Part shown: piece by piece, positions 4,703-39,023 of the stretch
Layout: each line of letters starts with the position of its first letter
Numbering within the stretch: position 1 is the first letter of the stretch
Position numbers and translations under genes: made by a program
Notes under the pieces: generated by a model
What the model was told of the DNA's origin: nothing
Database searches by the model: none
The model's input: only the letters and a program-made list of their open reading frames with translations
NCBI GenBank assembly: GCA_964477935.1
Contig: CAYZFX010000005.1
Span: 31,384-95,383, forward strand
DNA length: 64,000 bases
Reading direction: 5' to 3'
Origin: an uncultured Syntrophorhabdus sp.
GTDB taxonomy: Bacteria > Desulfobacterota > BSN033 > UBA1163

Positions 4703-4939
4703 TCAATTGCTCTCGGATTCAACAGGGTCATAGCCTCCGGGATTAAAGGGATGACACCTAATCAGCCTCTTCAGAGTGAGCCATCCCCCATGGATTACCC
4801 CATGGCGTTCGATCGCCTCGATGGCATAGCAGGAACAAGACGGATAAAACCGACAGCTGGGACCGAAGGCCATAGAGAGGGTCTTCTGGTAGGTCTGAAG
4901 CAGTAAGATGAGCATCTCTCTTAGTGCTTTTCCCAACAT
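4703..4939 (-). CDS. yidD: Membrane protein insertion efficiency factor YidD
   Basis: 78 aa with the conserved [19 protein letters not shown] motif. Confidence 0.85.
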
Positions 4940-5277
4940 GATTGAATCAAGACCTCCTTCAGTTCCTCTTCAACCTCTTGGTAGGAGGCGGGCAGACTCC
5001 CCTTTTTCACCAGAATAACCAGATCGAGTGACCCAATGATCAGATGTTTGTTCAGGCGAAAGAATTCCCGGAGGTATCGCTTCATCCGGTTGCGGATGCT
5101 GGCCGGTCCAACCTCTCTCTTTACGACAACGCCCAGCCGATGATAGTCTCTTCGGTTTTCGTGGAGAAAGAGGAGATAGTGTTTGGTTGAAAGCCTCCTG
5201 CCAGATCTCATCACCCTTCGGAAATCCTCGGGAAGGGCAATCCTCTCCTTTCGAGTGAACCTAAACGATCCTTTCAC
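4921..5277 (-). CDS. rnpA: RNase P protein component RnpA (GTG start overlapping the rpmH stop)
   Basis: 118 aa, basic, RnpA-like (FRFTRKERI...[10 protein letters not shown]), positioned between rpmH and yidD. Confidence 0.85.
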
Positions 5278-25725: not shown

Positions 25726-26172
25726 ATGGATAGATTCATCGTCACATTAGCCACCGGCATCGGCATCGGATACTTTCCCATCTTCCCGGGAACGATGGGG
25801 ACGGTCCTCGCCATCCCCATCGATTACTTCCTTTCGGAGGTTCCCTTTCCCTTTTATGCAATCACGCTTGGCGGTTTTTTCTTTCTCGCGGTCTGGGTTT
25901 CTGAGAAGACAGGGGCCATTTTCGGGAGGAAGGACGATCCGAGAATCGTCATCGATGAGATCGCTGGTTTCTTCTTGACTATGCTCGGGATCCCGAGGAA
26001 GCCCCTCTTTATCGCTGTCGGATTTATCCTCTTTAGATTTTTCGACATTGTGAAACCCCCCCCCATTCGCTTCTTGGAAAGAGCACCAGGGGGTTATGGA
26101 GTTGTTCTCGATGATGTAATGGCAGGCACTTATGCCAATATCCTACTGCGTCTGATATATGCGATCCTTTAA
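25726..26172 (+). CDS. pgpA: Phosphatidylglycerophosphatase A
   Basis: 148 aa starting MDRFIVTLATGIGIGYFPIFPGTMGT…, a PgpA-family membrane protein. The 5' part of the listed ORF (25282-25725) overlaps hisF and is judged non-coding. Confidence 0.8.
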   Translation: MDRFIVTLATGIGIGYFPIFPGTMGTVLAIPIDYFLSEVPFPFYAITLGGFFFLAVWVSEKTGAIFGRKDDPRIVIDEIAGFFLTMLGIPRKPLFIAVGFILFRFFDIVKPPPIRFLERAPGGYGVVLDDVMAGTYANILLRLIYAIL

Positions 26173-26206
26173 CGCCCTTCATCCTCTATTATCATCTAAC
26201 CTAAGA

Positions 26207-26294
26207 GGGTTTGCCGCCGGAGGCGGATCGCCTCTGGCGATTGGCGGGAGGCCTCTCGGTCTCCCTTGTGAGATAGGATGAATCGCTCAATTTT
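26207..26294 (+). repeat. GC-rich ~90-nt repeat element, copy R1, ending 68 nt upstream of pncC in sense orientation
   Basis: About 90% identical to the reverse complement of 29826-29918, and related to 30026-30114. It contains hairpin-forming CCGCC-GGA-GGCGG and GGGAG…CTCCC segments. Confidence 0.6.
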
Positions 26295-26361
26295 GGTCTC
26301 ATTTTATCATTCCGGGGTCGATCCGGCCCCTCTCCCTTTAGAAGGATTTTAGGATAAAGCC

Positions 26362-26868
26362 ATGAGATTAGAGAAAGCCCTTGGAGATCTCCTCAGGCAG
26401 AACGGCTGGACCCTCTCCATCGCCGAATCCTGCACAGGAGGGCTGATCTGCGACCGCCTCACCGATGTTTCCGGGAGTTCGGACTATTTTATGGGAGGGA
26501 TGGTCAATTACAGCAATGAATCGAAGGAAAGACATTTAGGCGTCCCGAGGGCAGATATCAGAAGGTATGGGGCGGTCAGCCCTCAGGTCGCTAAAAAGAT
26601 GGCCCGAGGAGTCCGGAAAGCCTTCGGAACCACCTTTGGATTATCCACCACCGGCATCGCAGGACCCACCGGCGGGACGAGGGAAAAACCGATCGGACTT
26701 GTCTTCATCGGATTGTCCGGGGGGAAAAAGACAATGGTGATGAGGTTAAATCTTAAAGGGGGTCGAAGGAGGATAAAAGAGAAATCGACCAAGAAGGCCC
26801 TGGAATTTCTTTATCAAACCCTTCGTGGGACATCGGCGATAGAGGAAGCGTTCCCTAAACGTTCGTAA
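26362..26868 (+). CDS. pncC: CinA C-terminal-domain protein / NMN amidohydrolase PncC-like
   Basis: 168 aa, …WTLSIAESCTGGLICDRLTDVSGSSDYFMGG…, of the CinA_C family. Confidence 0.75.
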   Translation: MRLEKALGDLLRQNGWTLSIAESCTGGLICDRLTDVSGSSDYFMGGMVNYSNESKERHLGVPRADIRRYGAVSPQVAKKMARGVRKAFGTTFGLSTTGIAGPTGGTREKPIGLVFIGLSGGKKTMVMRLNLKGGRRRIKEKSTKKALEFLYQTLRGTSAIEEAFPKRS

Positions 26869-26940
26869 GGGTTACCTGATGAACTATGGTTGGTTCTCGA
26901 AACCGCTTTCTGAACGAGGACCTGATGTCGCAATCTTCGA

Positions 26941-27447
26941 TTGGAGAGGGACATGATGGAAGGAAGGCCGTTATCCCCCCAGAGGATCCGTGATTTAAAG
27001 AAGGACTATTCACGGGGATTTATCGGAGACGTGGGCTATAAGGCGATCCATTTCGAGAGGGGTTATCTCGAGTCGCGTTTGAAGATTTCTGATCGCCATC
27101 GTCAGCAGGACCATTACATCCATGCCGGAGTCATCGCCACGATGGCCGACCATACCGCGGGATATGCGGCCTTCACCCTCGTTCCGGAGGATCACAGGAT
27201 CCTGACGATCGAGTTCAAGATCAACTTCCTCTGGCCAGCCTATGGAAAGGGCCTCGTCTGTAAATCGAGAATCGTGAGAGAAGGGGGCCAGATTCTGGTG
27301 GGAGAGAGCGAGGTCTTCGACCAGAGGGAGGGGGGAGAGGAGCTGGTCGCCAAGGCCATGGTCACCCTGAGATCGATCCATCAGAGCAGGATCAAACCGA
27401 TCAAAAAGGGCAGGCCCGGGAGGCGCTCTGCCCTCTTCTCCGATTGA
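26941..27447 (+). CDS. PaaI-family hotdog-fold thioesterase
   Basis: 168 aa with a TIGR00369-like motif …HAGVIATMADHTAGYAA…. Confidence 0.7.
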   Translation: MERDMMEGRPLSPQRIRDLKKDYSRGFIGDVGYKAIHFERGYLESRLKISDRHRQQDHYIHAGVIATMADHTAGYAAFTLVPEDHRILTIEFKINFLWPAYGKGLVCKSRIVREGGQILVGESEVFDQREGGEELVAKAMVTLRSIHQSRIKPIKKGRPGRRSALFSD

Positions 27448-27479
27448 ACGAGACAGCTCAATGGGGCGATCCGTCGACC

Positions 27480-28892
27480 CTACAGATTCGTTAAATATTC
27501 GTGAATGGAATTGGCCGCCTTTCTTCCGGCGCCCATGGCAAGGATCACGGTTGCTGATCCCGTGACAATATCCCCGCCTGCCCAGACCCCCTTTTTGGAC
27601 GTCTTTCCAGTCTCCGGGTCCGTCACGATGTAACCCCTCTTGTTCAGCTCGAGGCCAGGTGTGGTGGTGGTGAGAAGGGGGTTCGCGCCGGTGCCGATGG
27701 CGACGACCGCCAGGTCACACTCGAGCTGAAATTCAGAACCCTTGAGGGGAACGGGTCTTCGCCTTCCCGACTCATCCGGTTCGCCAAGTTCCATCCGGAG
27801 ACATTCGACGCCCGTCACCCAGCCGTTGTCATCTCCCAGGAATCGGACAGGGGCGGTCAGCAGATAGAACTGGACGCCCTCTTCCTCGGCATGGTGAATC
27901 TCCTCGATCCGGGCGGGCATCTCGTCCCGCGATCGCCGGTAGATGATCCGGACCGTTTCGGCCCCCAGCCGCACCGCGGTTCTTGCGGCATCCATGGCCA
28001 CGTTGCCCGCGCCGAAGACCACCACATTCTTTCCACGGGCGATGGGTGTGTCGTATTGGGGAAAGAGGTAGGCCTTCATCAGATTGGAACGGGTCAGGTA
28101 CTCGTTGGCCGAGTAGATACCGCAGAAGTTCTCCCCGGGGATGTTCAAAAATGTGGGGAGGCCCGCCCCAAGACCTAAAAAGACCGCGTCGTATTCCTCG
28201 AGGAGTTCATCGACGGTCTCGATCCTTCCAATGACGCAGTTGCATTCGACTTTTACGCCCAGCTGTTCGAGGTAGTTGACCTCTGCCTGAACGATATCCT
28301 TTGGAAGGCGAAATTCGGGGATGCCATAGATGAGGACGCCTCCAGGTTTATGAAGGGCCTCAAAGATCGTCACCTCATGCCCCTTCAGGATGAGGTCTCC
28401 TGCAACGGTCAGGCCTGCGGGACCGGAGCCCACCACGGCGACCTTCTTGCCTGTAGCCGGTGCCTTCTCCGGGATGAAGATCTCTCCCTTCTCCCTCTCC
28501 CAGTCGGCTGCGAATCGCTCGAGACGGCCGATGGCGACGGGCTCATCCTTCTTTCCAACGATGCAGACCTTCTCGCACTGGTCTTCCTGGGGACAGACCC
28601 TGCCGCAGATGGCCGGGAGGCTGTTCCGCTCTTTCAGCTTTCGCGCTGCGCCAACAAAATCGCCCTCCAGGATCAACTTGATGAAGGCAGGGATGTCGAT
28701 CTCGACAGGACATCCTTCGATGCACTTCGGCTTTTTGCACTGGATGCAGCGGCTCGCCTCCAGCTGGGCCAGCTCGGGCGTATAGCCGAAGGGGACCTCG
28801 TTAAAATTTTTCGCCCTCACCTTGGGGTCCTGTTCGGGCATCTTCTGCCTCGGAATCTTTACCCTCTCCTTTTTCTCTTTTTCTTCTGGCAT
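27480..28892 (-). CDS. nfnB: NADH-dependent reduced-ferredoxin:NADP+ oxidoreductase large subunit (GltD-like; also called SudA or glutamate synthase small chain)
   Basis: 470 aa with N-terminal 2x[4Fe-4S] Cys clusters (CIQCKKPKCIEGCP…CGRVCPQEDQCEKVC) and two Rossmann GxGxxG motifs (VVGSGPAGL, VFGAGNVAMD). It is paired with a PyrK-like subunit upstream. Confidence 0.8.
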   Translation of the reverse strand: MPEEKEKKERVKIPRQKMPEQDPKVRAKNFNEVPFGYTPELAQLEASRCIQCKKPKCIEGCPVEIDIPAFIKLILEGDFVGAARKLKERNSLPAICGRVCPQEDQCEKVCIVGKKDEPVAIGRLERFAADWEREKGEIFIPEKAPATGKKVAVVGSGPAGLTVAGDLILKGHEVTIFEALHKPGGVLIYGIPEFRLPKDIVQAEVNYLEQLGVKVECNCVIGRIETVDELLEEYDAVFLGLGAGLPTFLNIPGENFCGIYSANEYLTRSNLMKAYLFPQYDTPIARGKNVVVFGAGNVAMDAARTAVRLGAETVRIIYRRSRDEMPARIEEIHHAEEEGVQFYLLTAPVRFLGDDNGWVTGVECLRMELGEPDESGRRRPVPLKGSEFQLECDLAVVAIGTGANPLLTTTTPGLELNKRGYIVTDPETGKTSKKGVWAGGDIVTGSATVILAMGAGRKAANSIHEYLTNL

Positions 28893-28903
28893 CTCCCTTT
28901 CCC

Positions 28904-29737
28904 CTACCGTCCTAACTCTCTGAACCGATCCATGGAGATCTTCTCTTCGGTCAGATAGGCCCTCTGCCGCTTAATGAGTTCGTCGTAATCGACCAGATGG
29001 CCATCGAATTCAGGGCCATCGACACAGCAGAACATCGTCTTTCCTCCCACGGTGACCCGGCAGGCCCCGCACATTCCTGTGGCATCGACCATGATGGGGT
29101 TGAGGCTGACCATCGTCTTCACGCCGTACACCTGGGTCATCTTGCAGAGGAACTTCATCATGGGCACCGGTCCGATCCCTACCACCAGTTTCACGTCCTT
29201 TCGCTCGTCGAGGATCTGTTTGAGGACGTCGGTGACGAAACCGTGGTGGCCATAACTTCCGTCATCGGTCGTCACCCTCAAATCGTGGCTGGCAGCCCTC
29301 ATCTCGTCCTCGAGGATGAGGAGGTCCTTGGTCCGGGCGCCGATGATGGCGATGACATGGTTTCCTGCCTCTTTAAAGGCTTTGGTGATCGGATAGACGA
29401 CGGCCACGCCCGTACCGCCACCCACACAGACCACGGTCCCGAGATTTTCGATGTGGGTCGGCCTTCCAAGGGGTCCGATAATGTCCTGAATCGTGTCGCC
29501 GACGTTGAAGGTTCTTAAAAGAGCGGTGCTCTTGCCCACGACCTGGAAGATGAGATCGATCGTCCCATGGGCAGGATCGGTCCCCCCCATGGTGAGAGGG
29601 ATTCGCTCCCCGGTCTCGTTGGCCCTCAGGACGACAAACTGGCCAGGTTTTGCCTTCTTGGCGATCCGCGGAGCTTCCACTTTGAAGTGACAGACAGTAT
29701 TCTCGGCCATCTCCCTTTTGAATACGATCTTAAACAA
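28904..29737 (-). CDS. nfnA: NfnA/SudB small subunit (PyrK-like FAD/[2Fe-2S] ferredoxin-NADP+ reductase)
   Basis: 277 aa with an FNR-like fold and a C-terminal Cys cluster (CGACRVTVGGKTMFCCVDGPEF). Confidence 0.75.
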   Translation of the reverse strand: MFKIVFKREMAENTVCHFKVEAPRIAKKAKPGQFVVLRANETGERIPLTMGGTDPAHGTIDLIFQVVGKSTALLRTFNVGDTIQDIIGPLGRPTHIENLGTVVCVGGGTGVAVVYPITKAFKEAGNHVIAIIGARTKDLLILEDEMRAASHDLRVTTDDGSYGHHGFVTDVLKQILDERKDVKLVVGIGPVPMMKFLCKMTQVYGVKTMVSLNPIMVDATGMCGACRVTVGGKTMFCCVDGPEFDGHLVDYDELIKRQRAYLTEEKISMDRFRELGR

Positions 29738-29825
29738 GGCACCTTCCCCTTTCTGAAAAATATTTCACAAAGTCCGCTATTATATAAACCAACCTTTATC
29801 CAATGTCAAATATGGCAATGTCCCT

Positions 29826-29918
29826 AAATTGAGCGATTCATCCTAATCTTATCTCACAAGGGAGAACGAGATGCCTCCCGCCAACCGCCAGGGGCGATCC
29901 GCCTCCGGCGGCACACCC
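29826..29918 (-). repeat. GC-rich ~90-nt repeat element, copy R2 (inverted relative to R1), ending 89 nt upstream of nfnA in sense orientation
   Basis: Reverse complement is about 90% identical to 26207-26294. Confidence 0.6.
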
Positions 29919-30025
29919 TTTTAGAAGGCGAGACGTTGAACATTGGGGTAATGGATCTCGAATTTTCACCCAATCGGTGGTGAGGAAGCCGACCTCAGGG
30001 TTGATTCAACCCCTCATCCGCAGAA

Positions 30026-30114
30026 GCGGATCCCCCTCTGGCGGAAAGGTGGATCGCTCTAAAAGGCTTTTTGGTCCCCCTTATGAGGGATGAAAAAAAT
30101 CGCTCAATTTTAGA
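30026..30114 (+). repeat. Diverged third copy (R3/R4) of the ~90-nt repeat, upstream of the RRM-gene promoter
   Basis: GCGGATCCCCCTCTGGCGG…GGTCCCCCTTATGAGGGATGAAAAAAATCGCTCAATTTT aligns with the R1 segments GCGGATCGCCTCTGGCG…GGTCTCCCTTGTGAGATAGGATGAATCGCTCAATTTT. Confidence 0.5.
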
Positions 30115-30194
30115 AAGTAATTTTTTGGTGAGGGTGGGGTGGTCCCATCGAGGGGCCTCCGGCTTTCTTTGAATCACCGGAGTGAGCGGCCTCC

Positions 30195-30223
30195 TTGACA
30201 CCTTTTGAAATTTCGATTATAAA
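30195..30223 (+). promoter_or_regulatory. Sigma70-like promoter TTGACA-N17-TATAAA for the RRM/rpsU operon
   Basis: Read directly from sequence. -35 TTGACA is at 30195-30200, followed by a 17-nt spacer and -10 TATAAA at 30218-30223. Confidence 0.45.
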
Positions 30224-30277
30224 AAGATAGATCTCACATCATTGAGACACAACTCCCGAACTTAATAAAAAGTTTTT

Positions 30278-30318
30278 GGGAACCCCCAGAGACTCTTTAG
30301 GAAGTCCTGGGGGTTTCC
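30278..30318 (+). promoter_or_regulatory. Stable 5'-UTR stem-loop (GGGAACCCCCAGAGACT-loop-AGTCCTGGGGGTTTCC) immediately upstream of the Shine-Dalgarno of the RRM gene
   Basis: About 15 bp of near-perfect complementarity with no following U-run, so it is not a terminator. Confidence 0.45.
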
Positions 30319-30339
30319 AATTATCGGAGGAGATCGAGG

Positions 30340-30627
30340 ATGAGCCAAAAACTTTACATAGGAAATCTCCCGTTTTCAGCCTCGGAAGAGGAGGTGAGAA
30401 CCCTCTTCTCGGAAGCGGGCACGGTCGAATCTGTCAGGATTATCACCGATGCCTATACAGGGCGCTCCAGGGGATTCGGTTTTGTGGAGATGGCCTCCAG
30501 AGAGGAAGGGGCTAAGGCGATTTCCCTTTTTAACGGTAAGGTCTTTATGGAACGGTCCCTCGTAGTGAATGAGGCAAAACCTCAGAAACGAAGAGAGGGG
30601 GCCTTTAAGGGGAGGCGGAAGAGTTAG
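30340..30627 (+). CDS. RRM-type glycine-tailed RNA-binding protein
   Basis: 95 aa with RNP-2 (LYIGNL) and RNP-1 (RGFGFVEM) motifs. Confidence 0.85.
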   Translation: MSQKLYIGNLPFSASEEEVRTLFSEAGTVESVRIITDAYTGRSRGFGFVEMASREEGAKAISLFNGKVFMERSLVVNEAKPQKRREGAFKGRRKS

Positions 30628-34057: not shown

Positions 34058-34393
34058 GCAACCTTTCTCGGAGACAACGAAACCTCCTTGAATAGTTTTA
34101 AATACAATATAATATATATAATAGATATATTGTCAAGCACCAATTTGAATCAATCCCAAACCCCCGCAGAAGTCATAAAGCCAAAACGGGTAGGGCCAAT
34201 TTCACTATCCTTTCGAGAAACGAACAGAGAAGAATGACGGCGATGAAACATGGCGATCTGGCATCTCATCTGCTCCGTTTATTTCCTTAAAGAAGGAGTG
34301 AGCCCTCGACGGGATTATGATCGTTACGGTCATAACATGATCTTTCAGAACGATACTCCTTTGGTAAAGATTTCTTTGAGGACCTTTAGTCAT

Positions 34394-34579
34394 CCCTCAG
34401 TCAAGGGAACAAAAAAGGTTGGGAGGTTCTGAGGAGAAACCTTTACTCATTTAACGACGGATGCTCGCTTCAAAAGAAGACCATTCAAAAGGCAGGAAGA
34501 CCCATGGGGGTCACTTCAATGTCCGCCAATCAGGGTTTTGGAGGGGGAATCTTCCAACCCTTTTGAACCCATGTGACCT
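34394..34579 (+). repeat. Conserved ~190-nt structured leader element, copy A, about 110 nt upstream of ino1, with an embedded 15-codon uORF (34519-34566)
   Basis: About 85% identical to 38835-39023. The 5' GGTTGGGAGGTTC is complementary to the 3' GAATCTTCCAACC over 13 bp including 2 G-U pairs. The uORF encodes MSANQGFGGGIFQPF*. Confidence 0.6.
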
Positions 34580-34691: not shown

Positions 34692-35804
34692 ATGAAAAAG
34701 AATTCGATCCGGATAGCCATCGTAGGCGTTGGAAACTGTGCCAGTGCTCTTATTCAAGGGATTGAATTCTACAGGGATCTTTCTCGAAAGAATCCAAAAT
34801 TTGAGCCGCTGGGTTTGATGCACTTAGACCTCGGAGGATATAAACCCTGGGATATTGAAGTCGGTGCGGCCTTCGATGTTGATCGAAGGAAAGTGGGGAA
34901 ACCCCTGAGAGAGGCCATCTTCGCCAAGCCCAATTGCACGCGTATCTTCTTCTCTCAGTTCAACGATTCCGGCGTCACGGTCTCCATGGGCGAACCGCTC
35001 GATGGCATTTCAGAACATATGAAGGACTATCCCGAAGACCGAACATTCCTGCTGGCGAACGAGAAGCCCTGTAATGTGGAGAAGGTCCTGAAGGAGTCAG
35101 GGGTGGAGATCCTCCTCAATTACCTTCCGGTCGGTTCGGATCAGGCTACTCAGTTCTATGCGGAGGCCTGTCTCAATACAGGGGTGAGTTTCATCAACTG
35201 CATGCCCAGTTTCATCGTCTCGGATCCCAATTGGGCGAAACGGTTCGAGGAGAAGGGGATCCCGGCCGTGGGTGACGATGTGAAATCCCAGATGGGGGCG
35301 ACCATCATCCATCGGGCCCTGGCCAAACTCTTCGAGGACCGGGGGGTGAAACTCGACCGGACCTACCAGATCAATACCGGTGGAAATACCGATTTTCTCA
35401 ACATGCTCAACCGGAGCCGGCTGAAGAACAAGCGGATTTCTAAAACCGAAGCCATCCAGTCCCAGCTCGGATATCCTCTCGAACCTGAGAACATCCACAT
35501 CGGCCCTTCTGACTACGTCCCCTGGCAGAACGACAACAAGGTCTGCTTTCTCCGGATGGAAGGAAGAGGGTTCGGAGAGGTTCCCTTGAATCTCGAATTG
35601 AGGCTCTCTGTCGAAGACTCCCCGAACAGCGGTGGGATCACCATCGACGCCATCCGGTGCTGTAAGATCGCACGCAACCGAGGGATCGGCGGCCCTTTGA
35701 TCTCCATCTCTGCCTATGCGATGAAACACCCTCCCCTCCAGTTTCCCGACCATGAGGCCAAGGTCATGGTCGAGGAGTTCATTGCTGGCCAGAGGGAGAG
35801 GTAA
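34692..35804 (+). CDS. ino1: myo-Inositol-1-phosphate synthase (archaeal/bacterial short type)
   Basis: 370 aa with an N-terminal Rossmann segment IRIAIVGVGNCASALIQG and MIPS motifs including …YQINTGGNTDFLNMLN…. Confidence 0.85.
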   Translation: MKKNSIRIAIVGVGNCASALIQGIEFYRDLSRKNPKFEPLGLMHLDLGGYKPWDIEVGAAFDVDRRKVGKPLREAIFAKPNCTRIFFSQFNDSGVTVSMGEPLDGISEHMKDYPEDRTFLLANEKPCNVEKVLKESGVEILLNYLPVGSDQATQFYAEACLNTGVSFINCMPSFIVSDPNWAKRFEEKGIPAVGDDVKSQMGATIIHRALAKLFEDRGVKLDRTYQINTGGNTDFLNMLNRSRLKNKRISKTEAIQSQLGYPLEPENIHIGPSDYVPWQNDNKVCFLRMEGRGFGEVPLNLELRLSVEDSPNSGGITIDAIRCCKIARNRGIGGPLISISAYAMKHPPLQFPDHEAKVMVEEFIAGQRER

Positions 35805-36806
35805 TCCTTTGATCTTTTTGAAATGTTCCACAAACTTTCTTAAATCCTTTCCCAATCGCTCGTAGAGCTCTTCGAAGTGGTGGAGGTGGCCGAGGTATCG
35901 TCGGTGGGCAAGTATCACCGCGTTGTTAAGCACCTTCTTTTCAAACCCCTTATAACATTCCGTTCTGAACTCCCCCTGCATTTTGAGGAACTCTTCTCGG
36001 AGCGACTCGAAGAGTCTCTCACGGCCTTTCAGTTTCTCCTCCCTCGACAAGGGCTGAGCATAGAATTCAGATAGCTGCCGATACGCCCCCTCGATCCAAT
36101 TGGCAAAGCGCAGGTCATCTTCCTGCAAATGGATGGCCAGGCTGACCTCCTTCGAATTCGGACCATATTTCTCACGCAGAAATTCAATGGCCCCCTTGTT
36201 GCCGATGAAGGTGGCCAACTGTTCATTCAGTTCGGTCTCTCCTTTGAAATGGATCGTGGCATGGACCATCTCGTGGAGGATGATGTTGACCAGGGCGGGC
36301 TCCTCCCAGAGGAGCATCGTCGAGAAGATAGGATCCGTCAGCCATCCGAGGGTGCTATAGGCGGCCGCCATCTGAAGGTAGGTGTCGAACCCCTGTCGCT
36401 CCATCTTTCTCTTCTCTTTTAGAGCGGCCTTCAGGGTGAAGAGGCTTTTGTAAGTCACCCTTCCAATGACGGGAAATTTCCACGAATAGGCCTGGAGACG
36501 GTCTTTTTCGCTGGCCGTCAGGAGGTATAGGGTGAGGCCTTTTGCCTCGAAAAATTTGGTATAGTTCTTCGTCTCCTTTAAGCCCAACCTCTTTTCCCCG
36601 TAGTCCTTCACCTCTAAGATGAGCCGGATCTTCTTCGCGGCCTCCTCCCCAAGCACTTCTTCGAGCAGGACCTCTTCGACCGGAACGCTCCGAAAGGTGA
36701 CGAAGGACTGATGCCATCCTAAGTGGGAAAGGTAGAGAAGGTTTCCACAACCCGTGAGGAGGGAGAGGAAAGAGAAAAGGAATAAGAGCCTCAGCCTAAG
36801 AATCAT
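35097..36806 (-). CDS. Putative zinc aminopeptidase lipoprotein (HExxH; COG4324-like). The 3' end is doubtful because the ORF lacks a stop until 35097.
   Basis: N-terminal lipoprotein signal …LLTGCGN, then an HEMVH zinc motif followed by a conserved E (…NEQLAT…). Recognisable protein-like sequence ends near 35820 (…FVEHFKKIKG). The remaining ~230 codons run antisense through ino1 and look like a translated-antisense artefact. Confidence 0.5.
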   Translation of the reverse strand: MILRLRLLFLFSFLSLLTGCGNLLYLSHLGWHQSFVTFRSVPVEEVLLEEVLGEEAAKKIRLILEVKDYGEKRLGLKETKNYTKFFEAKGLTLYLLTASEKDRLQAYSWKFPVIGRVTYKSLFTLKAALKEKRKMERQGFDTYLQMAAAYSTLGWLTDPIFSTMLLWEEPALVNIILHEMVHATIHFKGETELNEQLATFIGNKGAIEFLREKYGPNSKEVSLAIHLQEDDLRFANWIEGAYRQLSEFYAQPLSREEKLKGRERLFESLREEFLKMQGEFRTECYKGFEKKVLNNAVILAHRRYLGHLHHFEELYERLGKDLRKFVEHFKKIKGLPLPLASNELLDHDLGLMVGKLEGRVFHRIGRDGDQRAADPSVACDLTAPDGVDGDPTAVRGVFDREPQFEIQGNLSEPSSFHPEKADLVVVLPGDVVRRADVDVLRFERISELGLDGFGFRNPLVLQPAPVEHVEKIGISTGIDLVGPVEFHPPVLEEFGQGPMDDGRPHLGFHIVTHGRDPLLLEPFRPIGIRDDETGHAVDETHPCIETGLRIELSSLIRTDRKVIEEDLHP

Positions 36807-38755
36807 TCCCTTCTTAATTTCTGAGAGACAAGAGCGATCACCATCAACCCCAGCCCGATAAAATCGTACTGGGCCACAGGGTAGAAGAGGAGGAGACCTC
36901 CGATGATCAATAAAATCCGCTCATAGATCAAGGCCTTCTTGAAGAACCAGTTTTCCACTCCCCCGGCGAGGGCAGCCACCCCCAGGAAGGCGGTCACTGT
37001 GGTCCAGATCACATCGGTGAAGGCCCCCCGGAGAAGGATCCCCACCCCTTTGAGGTCGAGGGTGAACATGAAGGGAACGATGAAGGCTGGAAGGGTATAT
37101 TTCCAGGCGTACATCGTGGTCTTGTAAGGATTCCCTTTGGTTAAGGCGGCCGCGGCGAAACAGGAGAGGGCCGTGGGGGGGGAGACCTCTGAGAGGATGG
37201 CATAGTAGAAGACGAACATGTGGGCGGCAAAGTCTGGCACCCCCAGTTGAATCAGTGCCGGTGCGGCAATCACTGCAGCGATGATATAGGAGGCCGTGAC
37301 CGGGACGGCCAAGCCGATCACCCAGACGATGAGGGCGGTATAGATGGCTGTCAGGAGCAGACTGCCCCCTGCATATTCGATGATGATCGAGCTGAACTTG
37401 AGACCCAGTCCCGTCAGGGTGACCACGCCCACGATGATGCCTGCAGCCGCGCAGGTGGAGGCGACGCTCAAGACGCCGAGGGCTCCTCCACGCAGGGCCC
37501 TCACCAGTTTGGCGGGAGTCAGGGCAGTGTCTTTGCGAAGGAAGCTGACGACGAAGGCCACAACCGTGGCCCAGAAGACCGCCAGGATCGGGGTGAAGCC
37601 GAGAACCATGATCACCACAATGGCAATCAGAGAGACGAAGTGAAACCCGTAGAGATAGGTGAGCTGCCAGAGACTATAGGTCTTATCCACGGAGATCTCT
37701 TTGACCCCGAATTTCTTGGCGTCGATCTCCACCATCAGGAAGATCGACCAGTAGTAGAGGCAGGTCGGGATGCAGGCCATGATGATCACATCGAGGTAGG
37801 AGATCTTCAGGAACTCAGCGATGAGAAAGGCTGCGGCCCCGAGCACCGGCGGGGAGAGGATGGCGCCGATGCCTCCAGCAGAGAGCAGGCCTCCTGCTGC
37901 CTCCTTGCTGTATCCTGCCTTGGCCAGCATCGGATAGGCGACCGAGCCCAAAGTGACGGTGGTCGCCACCCCGCTCCCCGAAGGCCCTCCGAGAAGAAAG
38001 GAGGCCAGGGTGACGGTCCGTCCCGCGCCGGTCGGCTTCCCTCCCATGGCAGCAAAGGAGAAGTCGATGAAGAACTTTCCCGCCCCAGAGACCTCGAGGA
38101 AAGCGCCATAGATGGTAAAGAGGATGATGAAGGTCGAGGAGACATCGATCGGAACGCCGAAGATCCCTTCGAGGGTCATATACATATGGCCAACCAGCCG
38201 GCCGAGGTCATACCCCCGATGGGTCCAGGGTTTGGGAAGCTCCGGCCCGACGAAGGCATAGACGATGAAGGCGATCACGATCACAGGCATGATCCAGCCT
38301 GTGGTCCGCCGGGTGGCCTCGAGCACCAGAAGGATCAAGAGGGTTCCAAAAACGATATCCCAGAAGTTGGGCACAACTGAGCGGTAGATAAATTCGTCGA
38401 AATCGATAAACATGTAGGCGATGACGGCGACGCCCAGAAGGGCGAGGAGATAATCATACCAGAGGATCCGGTTCTTGAACCGCTTGAACGAGGGAAAGAC
38501 CAGAAAGGAGAGGAAGAGGACAAACATGACGTGAATGCCCCTGAGGACCTGGGTCATGATCACGCCGATAGCGGCATAGAGGTGAACGAGCGACATCACT
38601 ACCGCCACGACGGTGATAAAGAGATCGATCTTTCCCGAGAGCCTCCGGGAGGGTCCCTCTTCCTCCTCGATATACTTTTCGGCCTCCTTGAGGGCCTCTT
38701 CGGTAATGACGGCTTCTTCCATCTTTTTTCGATCATCAGTTTTCATATCGTTCAC
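36803..38755 (-). CDS. TRAP transporter fused DctQ/DctM-type permease (4TM+12TM)
   Basis: 650 aa, highly hydrophobic, matching the TIGR02123-like fused permease that pairs with TAXI receptors. Confidence 0.85.
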   Translation of the reverse strand: MNDMKTDDRKKMEEAVITEEALKEAEKYIEEEEGPSRRLSGKIDLFITVVAVVMSLVHLYAAIGVIMTQVLRGIHVMFVLFLSFLVFPSFKRFKNRILWYDYLLALLGVAVIAYMFIDFDEFIYRSVVPNFWDIVFGTLLILLVLEATRRTTGWIMPVIVIAFIVYAFVGPELPKPWTHRGYDLGRLVGHMYMTLEGIFGVPIDVSSTFIILFTIYGAFLEVSGAGKFFIDFSFAAMGGKPTGAGRTVTLASFLLGGPSGSGVATTVTLGSVAYPMLAKAGYSKEAAGGLLSAGGIGAILSPPVLGAAAFLIAEFLKISYLDVIIMACIPTCLYYWSIFLMVEIDAKKFGVKEISVDKTYSLWQLTYLYGFHFVSLIAIVVIMVLGFTPILAVFWATVVAFVVSFLRKDTALTPAKLVRALRGGALGVLSVASTCAAAGIIVGVVTLTGLGLKFSSIIIEYAGGSLLLTAIYTALIVWVIGLAVPVTASYIIAAVIAAPALIQLGVPDFAAHMFVFYYAILSEVSPPTALSCFAAAALTKGNPYKTTMYAWKYTLPAFIVPFMFTLDLKGVGILLRGAFTDVIWTTVTAFLGVAALAGGVENWFFKKALIYERILLIIGGLLLFYPVAQYDFIGLGLMVIALVSQKLRRE

Positions 38756-38834
38756 CTCTCCCGTTCAAAAACACTTCATTCATAATAAAAATGGCTTTTT
38801 ATTGTCAAGAAAAAAGGGACCAAGAGGGTAATTC

Positions 38835-39023
38835 CCTCAGTCAAGGGAAGAAAAAGGGTTGGGAGGTTCTTCCGGAAAAACCTTGATTCATTGAAAGATG
38901 GAGGCTCGCCTCAAAAGAACCCCATTCAAAAGGCAGGAAGACCCATTGGGGTCACTTCAATGTCCGCCCTTCAACAAGGTTTTGGAGGGGGAATCTTCCA
39001 ACCCTTTTGAACCCATGTGACCC
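38835..39023 (+). repeat. Conserved ~190-nt structured leader element, copy B, about 50 nt upstream of the DUF362/LarA-like gene, with a 16-codon uORF (38960-39010)
   Basis: Paralogous to 34394-34579. The uORF encodes MSALQQGFGGGIFQPF*, carrying one extra in-frame codon relative to copy A. Confidence 0.6.

Follow-up and report, generated by a model that had tools for sequence, protein, structure and literature searches.

Three GC-rich repeats (R1, R2 and R3) in a 64,000-nt stretch of DNA from an uncultured Syntrophorhabdus sp. (contig CAYZFX010000005.1, positions 31,384 to 95,383; hereafter the window), situated close to pncC, nfnA and the RRM/rpsU genes, were analysed. A first-pass annotation had interpreted them as a shared cis-regulatory element, a small RNA (sRNA) or a riboswitch-like leader of pyridine-nucleotide operons, and had kept an intergenic repeat of the REP (repetitive extragenic palindromic) or MITE (miniature inverted-repeat transposable element) type, acting at the DNA level, as a fallback. 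We are highly confident that the repeats are the two arms of a MITE and a truncated arm of another copy of the same family, and that they represent selfish DNA and not a regulator of NAD(P) metabolism. The fallback, in its form of a MITE-like repeat, was correct. The MITE assignment draws on direct observations, namely family membership, copy number, terminal inverted repeats (TIRs), target duplications, intergenic scatter and absence of the element at orthologous sites of relatives.

The repeats were found where the first-pass annotation had placed them. R1 pairs with R2 as a 79-nt inverted repeat (91% complementary), the arms being 26201–26279 and 29846–29924. The window contains exactly two occurrences of the 18-mer GGATGAATCGCTCAATTT, where 0.10 would be expected. 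A profile of the three copies, searched against the 64 kb, matched only 26201–26298 (plus strand), 29821–29924 (minus strand) and 30018–30115 (plus strand), the best remaining match having an E-value of 0.18. No arms beyond these three were detected in the window by arm profile and full-element profile searches. R3 is a diverged copy which has AATCGCTCAATTT, CCCTTRTGAG and the GCGGATC..CTGGCGG block in common with R1 and R2. The previously noted distances held as well: 67 nt separate R1 from pncC, about 86–88 nt separate R2 from the TTG start of nfnA (29737), and 80 nt lie between the right end of the MITE (R3) and the -35 box of the RRM promoter. The description as three copies stood only in part: three arms were found but they are not equivalent, R2 and R3 being the arms of one element and R1 a truncated arm. 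The sense orientation observed for each copy upstream of a gene is accounted for by the position of an element with TIRs in a divergent spacer and by that of a solo arm within a co-directional operon. The window copies consist of the following parts:

29823–30114, unstranded: full-length MITE copy of 292 nt (R2, a centre of ~100 nt and R3) in the divergent spacer between nfnA and RRM-rpsU
29823–29918, minus strand: A arm (R2) with the outer terminus CCTAAATTGAGCGATTCATCC, from the inverted repeat, the family alignment and the profile
29877–29911, minus strand: 35-nt GC-rich hairpin block CCCGCCAACCGCCAGGGGCGATCCGCCTCCGGCGG in the A arm, an insertion relative to the family profile
30016–30044, plus strand: 29-nt GC-rich block ATCCGCAGAAGCGGATCCCCCTCTGGCGG in the B arm, an insertion relative to the profile
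30045–30114, plus strand: B arm (3' part of R3) with the poly-A-containing terminus GATGAAAAAAATCGCTCAATTTTAGA, from the family alignment and the profile
26202–26296, plus strand: truncated solo A arm (R1) in the pgpA-pncC spacer, with its outer terminus CAATTTTGG facing pncC
26214–26248, plus strand: 35-nt GC-rich hairpin block CCGCCGGAGGCGGATCGCCTCTGGCGATTGGCGGG within R1, from the sequence, the profile and the comparison of copies

To find further copies, one genome of each prokaryotic species was scanned for exact matches to the pattern CCTTRTGAG-N4-18-AATCGCTCAATTT. The scan yielded 57 loci, 44 of them in a single metagenome-assembled genome (MAG), CAZREE01 (‘uncultured Syntrophorhabdus sp.’). 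The remaining loci belonged to related Deltaproteobacteria/Thermodesulfobacteriota MAGs (VGSS01, VGRY01, JAGXTA01, and DAIPKW01), apart from one Acidobacteriota match that is probably a chance hit. Usually a minus-strand match was followed by a plus-strand match ~190 nt further on, which is the R2-R3 arrangement, and many matches were located at contig ends. Extracted arm pairs defined a canonical length of 227 nt with the termini CCTAAATTGAGCGATT… and …AATCGCTCAATTTAGG (in short form CCTAAATTGAGCG… / …CGCTCAATTTAGG). Alignment of the family copies showed that the two arms are homologous to each other over ~70 nt and that a centre of ~85 nt is conserved.

The genome scan contained 29 full-length copies, mostly of exactly 227 nt, and a perfect 5-bp target-site duplication was present at 24 of them, the chance of such a duplication being 1/1024 per copy. 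The duplicated pentamers vary from site to site (TATAT, TAGTA, TCTGC, GTTCA, and TGGAA are examples). The same scan applied to metagenome contigs gave 78 loci with 59 full-length copies, of which 47 had a perfect 5-bp duplication; part of the 78 loci coincide in sequence with the MAG contigs. In the combined genome and metagenome set, 71/88 full-length copies carry a perfect duplication. Internally deleted variants of 83–87 and 159–193 nt were found together with variants enlarged by GC-rich insertions (249–257, 285, and 317 nt), and a second MITE-like family is nested in the 361-nt variants. With a canonical length of 227 nt, variants of 83–361 nt and a window copy of 292 nt, the element is short and cannot contain a transposase gene. 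According to crude open reading frame (ORF) calls, 27 of the 29 genome copies are intergenic, and their gene contexts comprise 14 tandem, 4 divergent and 1 convergent arrangement. The genes beside other copies include GAPDH, cmk (cytidylate kinase), hemB (ALA dehydratase), pyrF (OMP decarboxylase), infC (IF-3), dapA (DHDPS), GDPD and argJ, and copies on contigs of the window's own metagenomes adjoin asd, glycosyltransferases, greA, an ABC ATPase and ornithine carbamoyltransferase. No NAD(P) theme was apparent among these genes. The family therefore carries the signature by which MITEs are defined, being short, non-coding, bounded by TIRs and site-specific target duplications, dispersed in many mostly intergenic copies, and accompanied by deleted and truncated relatives (PMC10969869).

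A second MITE-like family, with the termini GAGACTGTGTCGTAATT…AATTACGACACAGTCTC, was seen nested in copies of the first family or hit by them. It was located at L014 6930–7230, L020 4905–5150, L045 522–882, L048 4952–5314 and L002 220–289 (L numbers designate the collected loci) and is absent from the window.

In order to place the window copies within the family, a profile of 27 canonical copies (237 positions) was used. The window sequence 29821–30111 aligned to positions 4–230 of 237 (149 bits, E=1.8e-45), and this end-to-end alignment identifies R2, the ~100-nt centre and R3 as one 292-nt element (29823–30114). Relative to the canonical copy the element has a 6-nt insertion near the A terminus as well as the 35-nt A-arm and 29-nt B-arm blocks. 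As RNA it folds into one long end-to-end hairpin (-121.3 kcal/mol, z=-5.5). Mutation has altered its right terminus (CAATTTTAGA versus CAATTTAGG), and the flanking pentamers, ATGTC and AAGTA, agree at only 3/5 positions; judged by these features, it is an old copy whose duplication has decayed. R1 matched the profile solidly at positions 5–65 (26202–26296) and weakly out to 26161 (E=5.4e-15). It is 91% identical to R2, and since the centre and the B arm are missing from it, R1 is a truncated solo arm. Truncated copies of this kind were also found at L022 and L049. Both window copies are probably immobile fossils, the 292-nt copy on account of its mutated terminus and decayed duplication and R1 because an arm is missing.

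Short metagenome contigs identical to the window (L001, L059, and L060) break at 26210, inside R1, and at 29929, inside the MITE. Breaks of this sort are to be expected of an assembler at a multi-copy repeat. Further copies with R1-type arms were located on additional contigs of these metagenomes, FMJZ01 and FMSI01 (L073, L075, L095, and L115), and duplications of their own were present at L075 (AAGAA/AAGAA) and L095 (TTTCC/TTTCC). An arrangement in which R1 and R2 would be the ends of a composite transposon carrying pncC-paaI-nfnBA was rejected because the termini of both arms face inward to the genes.

The two insertion sites were compared with orthologous loci of relatives. The relatives without the element at nfnA and at pgpA-pncC show only 72–91% protein identity and a differing synteny of the nfnA flank; their sites are empty but not strictly allelic to those of the window. 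At the pgpA-pncC locus, relatives (L067–L071) keep the genes in the order DAHP synthase, transaldolase-like gene, hisA, hisF, pgpA, pncC, and no element was found in their pgpA-pncC junction. The two genes share a 4-nt overlap in L070, and a 121-nt spacer of unrelated sequence separates them in L067. R1 is an insertion into a probable pgpA-pncC operon. The window spacer is predicted to fold stably as RNA (-75.7 kcal/mol, z=-3.2), and R1, probably included in the pgpA-pncC transcript, would contribute stable hairpins there.

R1 is preceded by the pgpA ORF (phosphatidylglycerophosphatase A; 25726–26172), and pncC is located at 26362–26868. The listed 296-aa pgpA ORF is over-extended, the PgpA-like part beginning near MDRFIVTLATG. 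Downstream of pncC, a paaI-type thioesterase gene and then the convergent nfnBA genes follow, an order that is not kept in the relatives. The spacer of L067, a relative from Lake Tanganyika (K_DeepCast), is hairpin-rich at 4880–5000 (…CATTCCGGGCTTGACCCGGAATCCAG…CCCGCTTTTGCGGGAATGAC…) and looks like another small palindromic repeat. A similar short hairpin, TTCCGGGGTCGATCCGG, is present in the window at 26321–26337.

At the nfnA locus, the gene starts with a TTG codon at 29737 and its product begins with MFKIVFKRE…. Two promoter-like sequences flank the 292-nt element:

29779–29809, minus strand: nfnA promoter-like TTGACA-N17-TATATAAT, read from the sequence and aligned with L061, L062, L064 and L065
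30195–30223, plus strand: RRM/rpsU promoter-like TTGACA-N17-TATAAA, read from the sequence

A consensus promoter scanner passed over the nfnA promoter because its TATATA lacks the required T at position 6, and it missed the RRM/rpsU promoter for the same reason. The MITE end (29823) is located 13 nt beyond the nfnA -35 box. No trace of the element was detected upstream of the nfnA orthologues, 88–91% identical, on L061, L062, L064 and L065. Three of these loci (L061, L062, and L064) share with the window the nfnA promoter and the leader ACTTTGTGAAA(A/T)ATTT(A/T)TCAGAAAGGAGG, and in L065 the promoter is conserved and the leader has diverged. The homology between the window and the relatives ends just upstream of the -35 box. 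Synteny around nfnAB is not conserved in these loci, and the comparison is limited to the promoter-proximal region. Since R2 lies upstream of the conserved predicted promoter, it would be outside the predicted nfnAB transcript.

The conserved nfnA promoter and leader extend over 29745–29810 (minus strand) in the window, 5916–6000 in L061, 5916–6000 in L062 and 2744–2828 in L064. The window sequence 29753–29770 differs from the Rex box TTGTGAANNNNTTCACAA by 3 mismatches. The promoter-proximal motif TTTGTGAAA(A/T)ATTT(A/T)TCAGAAA at nfnAB resembles a degenerate Rex box, and as a candidate element for redox or NAD(H) control of nfnAB it is preferable to the repeat.

The stretch that had been highlighted as the shared core of the repeats, GCCGCCGGAGGCGGATCGCC-CTGGCG-TTGGCGGGAGGC, is mostly the GC-rich block. 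This block is absent from the canonical 227-nt copies and from most family members and is carried by one subfamily. Its position in the A arm holds variants of 30, 35 and 59 nt in L146, L095, L037 and L115. The B-arm block is homologous to the A-arm block but differently positioned, and to it R3 owes its resemblance to the 5' part of R1 and R2. L115 likewise has a block of this kind in its B arm. In the 1.03 Mb of collected loci, the block was found 32 times inside MITE copies, compared with 6 weak partial matches outside.

Orthologous MITE insertions were observed in two populations, represented by L076 (8784–9010 and 10521–10747) and L146 (9141–9397 and 10909–11165). Their flanks are ~98.6% identical and the 5-bp duplications are the same, and both copies differ by an exact 30-nt block, CCCGCCAAAGGCGAGGCTCGCCTCCGGCGG. 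This difference may stem from hairpin deletion, gene conversion or a nested mobile palindrome, and could equally be an assembly artefact caused by the path choice of a De Bruijn graph inside the repeat. We consider it improbable that the GC-rich block is a dynamic unit which is gained and lost precisely within MITE copies. If it were, these dynamics would be due to a tiny nested mobile or self-excising palindrome, to rapid gene conversion among MITE copies or, with lower probability, to selection of the block as a functional module in some hosts.

The following mechanism is proposed for the origin of the window repeats. The family consists of non-coding, non-autonomous DNA transposons whose inverted termini (CCTAAATTGAGCGATT… / …AATCGCTCAATTTAGG) would be recognised by a transposase encoded elsewhere. 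This enzyme would cut the target with a 5-bp stagger, giving rise to the 5-bp direct duplications. The 29823–30114 copy, complete but decayed, inserted 13 nt upstream of the nfnA -35 box in the divergent nfnA / RRM-rpsU spacer, and 26202–26296 is a lone truncated arm in the spacer of pgpA and pncC. We infer that the elements are mobilised in trans by a DDE transposase, for which the IS1380 family is the probable source.

Several observations weigh against this explanation. In the 1.03 Mb of loci, no transposase gene flanked by the same termini was found. Solo ends away from contig ends belonged only to truncated or nested copies, and end pairs 0.7–4 kb apart with matching flanks were only two adjacent MITEs which enclosed no transposase gene. 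A tblastn search with the transposase of ISEcp1, a member of the IS1380 family, gave no match in any of the collected loci and none beside any copy. In addition, neither window copy has a clean target duplication (3/5 in the 292-nt copy; R1 is truncated), the copy number in the window's own genome is known only indirectly, and the ORF calls behind the gene contexts are crude. Finally, a secondary, exapted regulatory role of the window copies is compatible with the sequence.

Such an exaptation, which would be added to the MITE origin, is possible but unlikely. It would make R1 an intercistronic RNA tuning polarity or stability of pgpA-pncC, and R2-R3 a piece of DNA altering the transcription of nfnAB and/or RRM-rpsU. 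MITEs elsewhere provide promoters, IHF sites and RNA structures (PMC10969869). R1 is situated between co-directional genes which overlap or abut in relatives, so that it is probably transcribed, and the end of R2 is only 13 nt from the nfnA -35 box. On the other hand, the insertions are conserved in identical contigs only, the scanner detected neither an outward consensus promoter nor a terminator in the arms, and both copies are decaying. A candidate outward promoter in the arms, TTGTGA-N17-AATTTA, was rejected, being a poor match whose spacing is altered by the 6-nt insertion in R2 and which the scanner did not report. The effects of the insertions on their neighbours that we infer are a structured pgpA-pncC intercistronic RNA as well as altered DNA upstream of the nfnA -35 box and 80 nt upstream of the RRM/rpsU -35 box.

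The interpretation of the repeats as a shared operator, riboswitch-like leader or sRNA co-ordinating pncC-paaI and nfnAB is very unlikely and has been largely refuted. It had been suggested by two copies located in sense orientation upstream of NAD(P)-related genes; moreover, the sequences can form stable hairpins (as in the pgpA-pncC spacer), and one of the R1/R2 differences retains pairing as G-U on the sense strand. However, the Rfam scan that the first-pass annotation had proposed revealed no relevant family. The whole window gave no match at the gathering score, and the region 25800–30600 gave nothing relevant at E-values up to 10, chance-level matches to His_leader and PrrB occurring elsewhere. 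The element is also missing upstream of nfnA in the four relatives (88–91% protein identity) and at the pgpA-pncC junction of relatives. The end of R2 is 13 nt upstream of the -35 box of a promoter conserved in relatives, so R2 lies outside the predicted nfnAB transcript, and R2 and R3 both lie upstream of predicted promoters; these features, together with the lack of a match to a curated RNA family and the absence at orthologous positions, do not fit a riboswitch. More than 80 other copies were found next to unrelated genes, in all orientations and with target-site duplications. The first-pass annotation had itself called for a genome search for further copies and had stated that dozens of scattered copies would speak against regulation, and dozens of scattered copies are what was found.

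REP elements make no target duplications. The least probable alternative, to which we give almost no weight, is a REP or BIME (bacterial interspersed mosaic element) palindrome of 20–40 nt, imperfect and without duplications, spread by a RAYT (REP-associated tyrosine transposase; IS200/IS605-like) or by recombination: the element is indeed GC-rich, palindromic and intergenic, and truncated copies like R1 look REP-like, as truncated MITEs can (PMC10969869), but the full copies are 227-nt units with ~70-nt homologous inverted arms, defined termini and perfect 5-bp target duplications in 71/88 cases, and the GC-rich block almost never occurs outside MITE copies.

Being MITE debris, the apparent NAD(P) regulon motif does not warrant annotation as a riboswitch, an sRNA or an operator. 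The cis element at nfnAB to which the analysis points is the conserved promoter-proximal motif. The MITE family, previously unnamed although the kind of element is well known, is abundant in uncultured Thermodesulfobacteriota (Syntrophorhabdus-like MAGs) and is defined by its 227-nt consensus, its termini and the 5-bp duplication. It fragments metagenome assemblies, and could be masked or serve as a strain marker.

A second, unrelated repeat of ~190 nt was observed in the window in two direct copies (34393–34578 and 38833–39022) which are 87–98% identical. Both copies are intergenic, contain internal inverted repeats and flank two minus-strand ORFs (35097–38755).

Comparison with known prokaryotic MITEs (Correia, ERIC, RUP, Nezha, QMITE, and MITEAba12) revealed the same general organisation. 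Like these, the window family is shorter than 500 bp, non-coding and multi-copy and has TIRs; its target duplications decay in older copies, it occupies intergenic sites and its transcript would form a stable stem-loop (PMC10969869). Full-length, internally deleted and truncated copies coexist in both cases, and nesting is possible (PMC10969869). However, the sequence of the window family is unrelated to those named families that could be checked, its arms are homologous over ~70 nt compared with the usual TIRs of 4–30 bp, and one of its subfamilies has GC-rich hairpin blocks whereas MITEs are usually AT-rich. Chunjie, a MITE found in Geobacter uraniireducens Rf4, is similar in host group (former Deltaproteobacteria) and in size (178–235 bp), and it also inserts between genes and within operons, leaving the operon intact, and has many partial copies (PMC10969869, PMC3184786). 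The TIRs of Chunjie measure 21 bp and its direct repeats 9 bp (PMC3184786), in contrast to the 5-bp duplications and different termini of the window family, and identity of the two families was rejected on these grounds. In BrickBuilt, a MITE from Porphyromonas gingivalis, copies are distinguished by an internal repeat block that varies (PMC4596501). The BrickBuilt block is a tandem minisatellite, whereas the block of the window family is a GC-rich palindromic hairpin of 30–59 nt whose position, in one arm or in both, is fixed.

The ends of the MITE were also compared with those of larger transposons. Tn3-family elements give 5-bp duplications as well, and their 38-bp ends start with GGGG, a start not seen in the MITE ends. 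ISEcp1 of the IS1380 family likewise makes 5-bp target duplications (PMC2887853). No IS1380-like transposase was found beside any copy of the window family or in the 1.03 Mb of loci. The ends of ISEcp1 in pC15-1a are CCTAGATTCTACGT (left inverted repeat) and …ACGTGGAATTTAGG (right inverted repeat), and those of the MITE are CCTAAATTGAGCGA… and …TCGCTCAATTTAGG. At the MITE ends, the outermost 8 nt (CCTAAATT / AATTTAGG) are identical to those of the ISEcp1 right inverted repeat, and 10/14 positions agree overall, the similarity being weak beyond the terminal 8 nt. This resemblance, which is one of termini and not of family membership, may point to the IS1380 family as a lead to the parent of the MITE.

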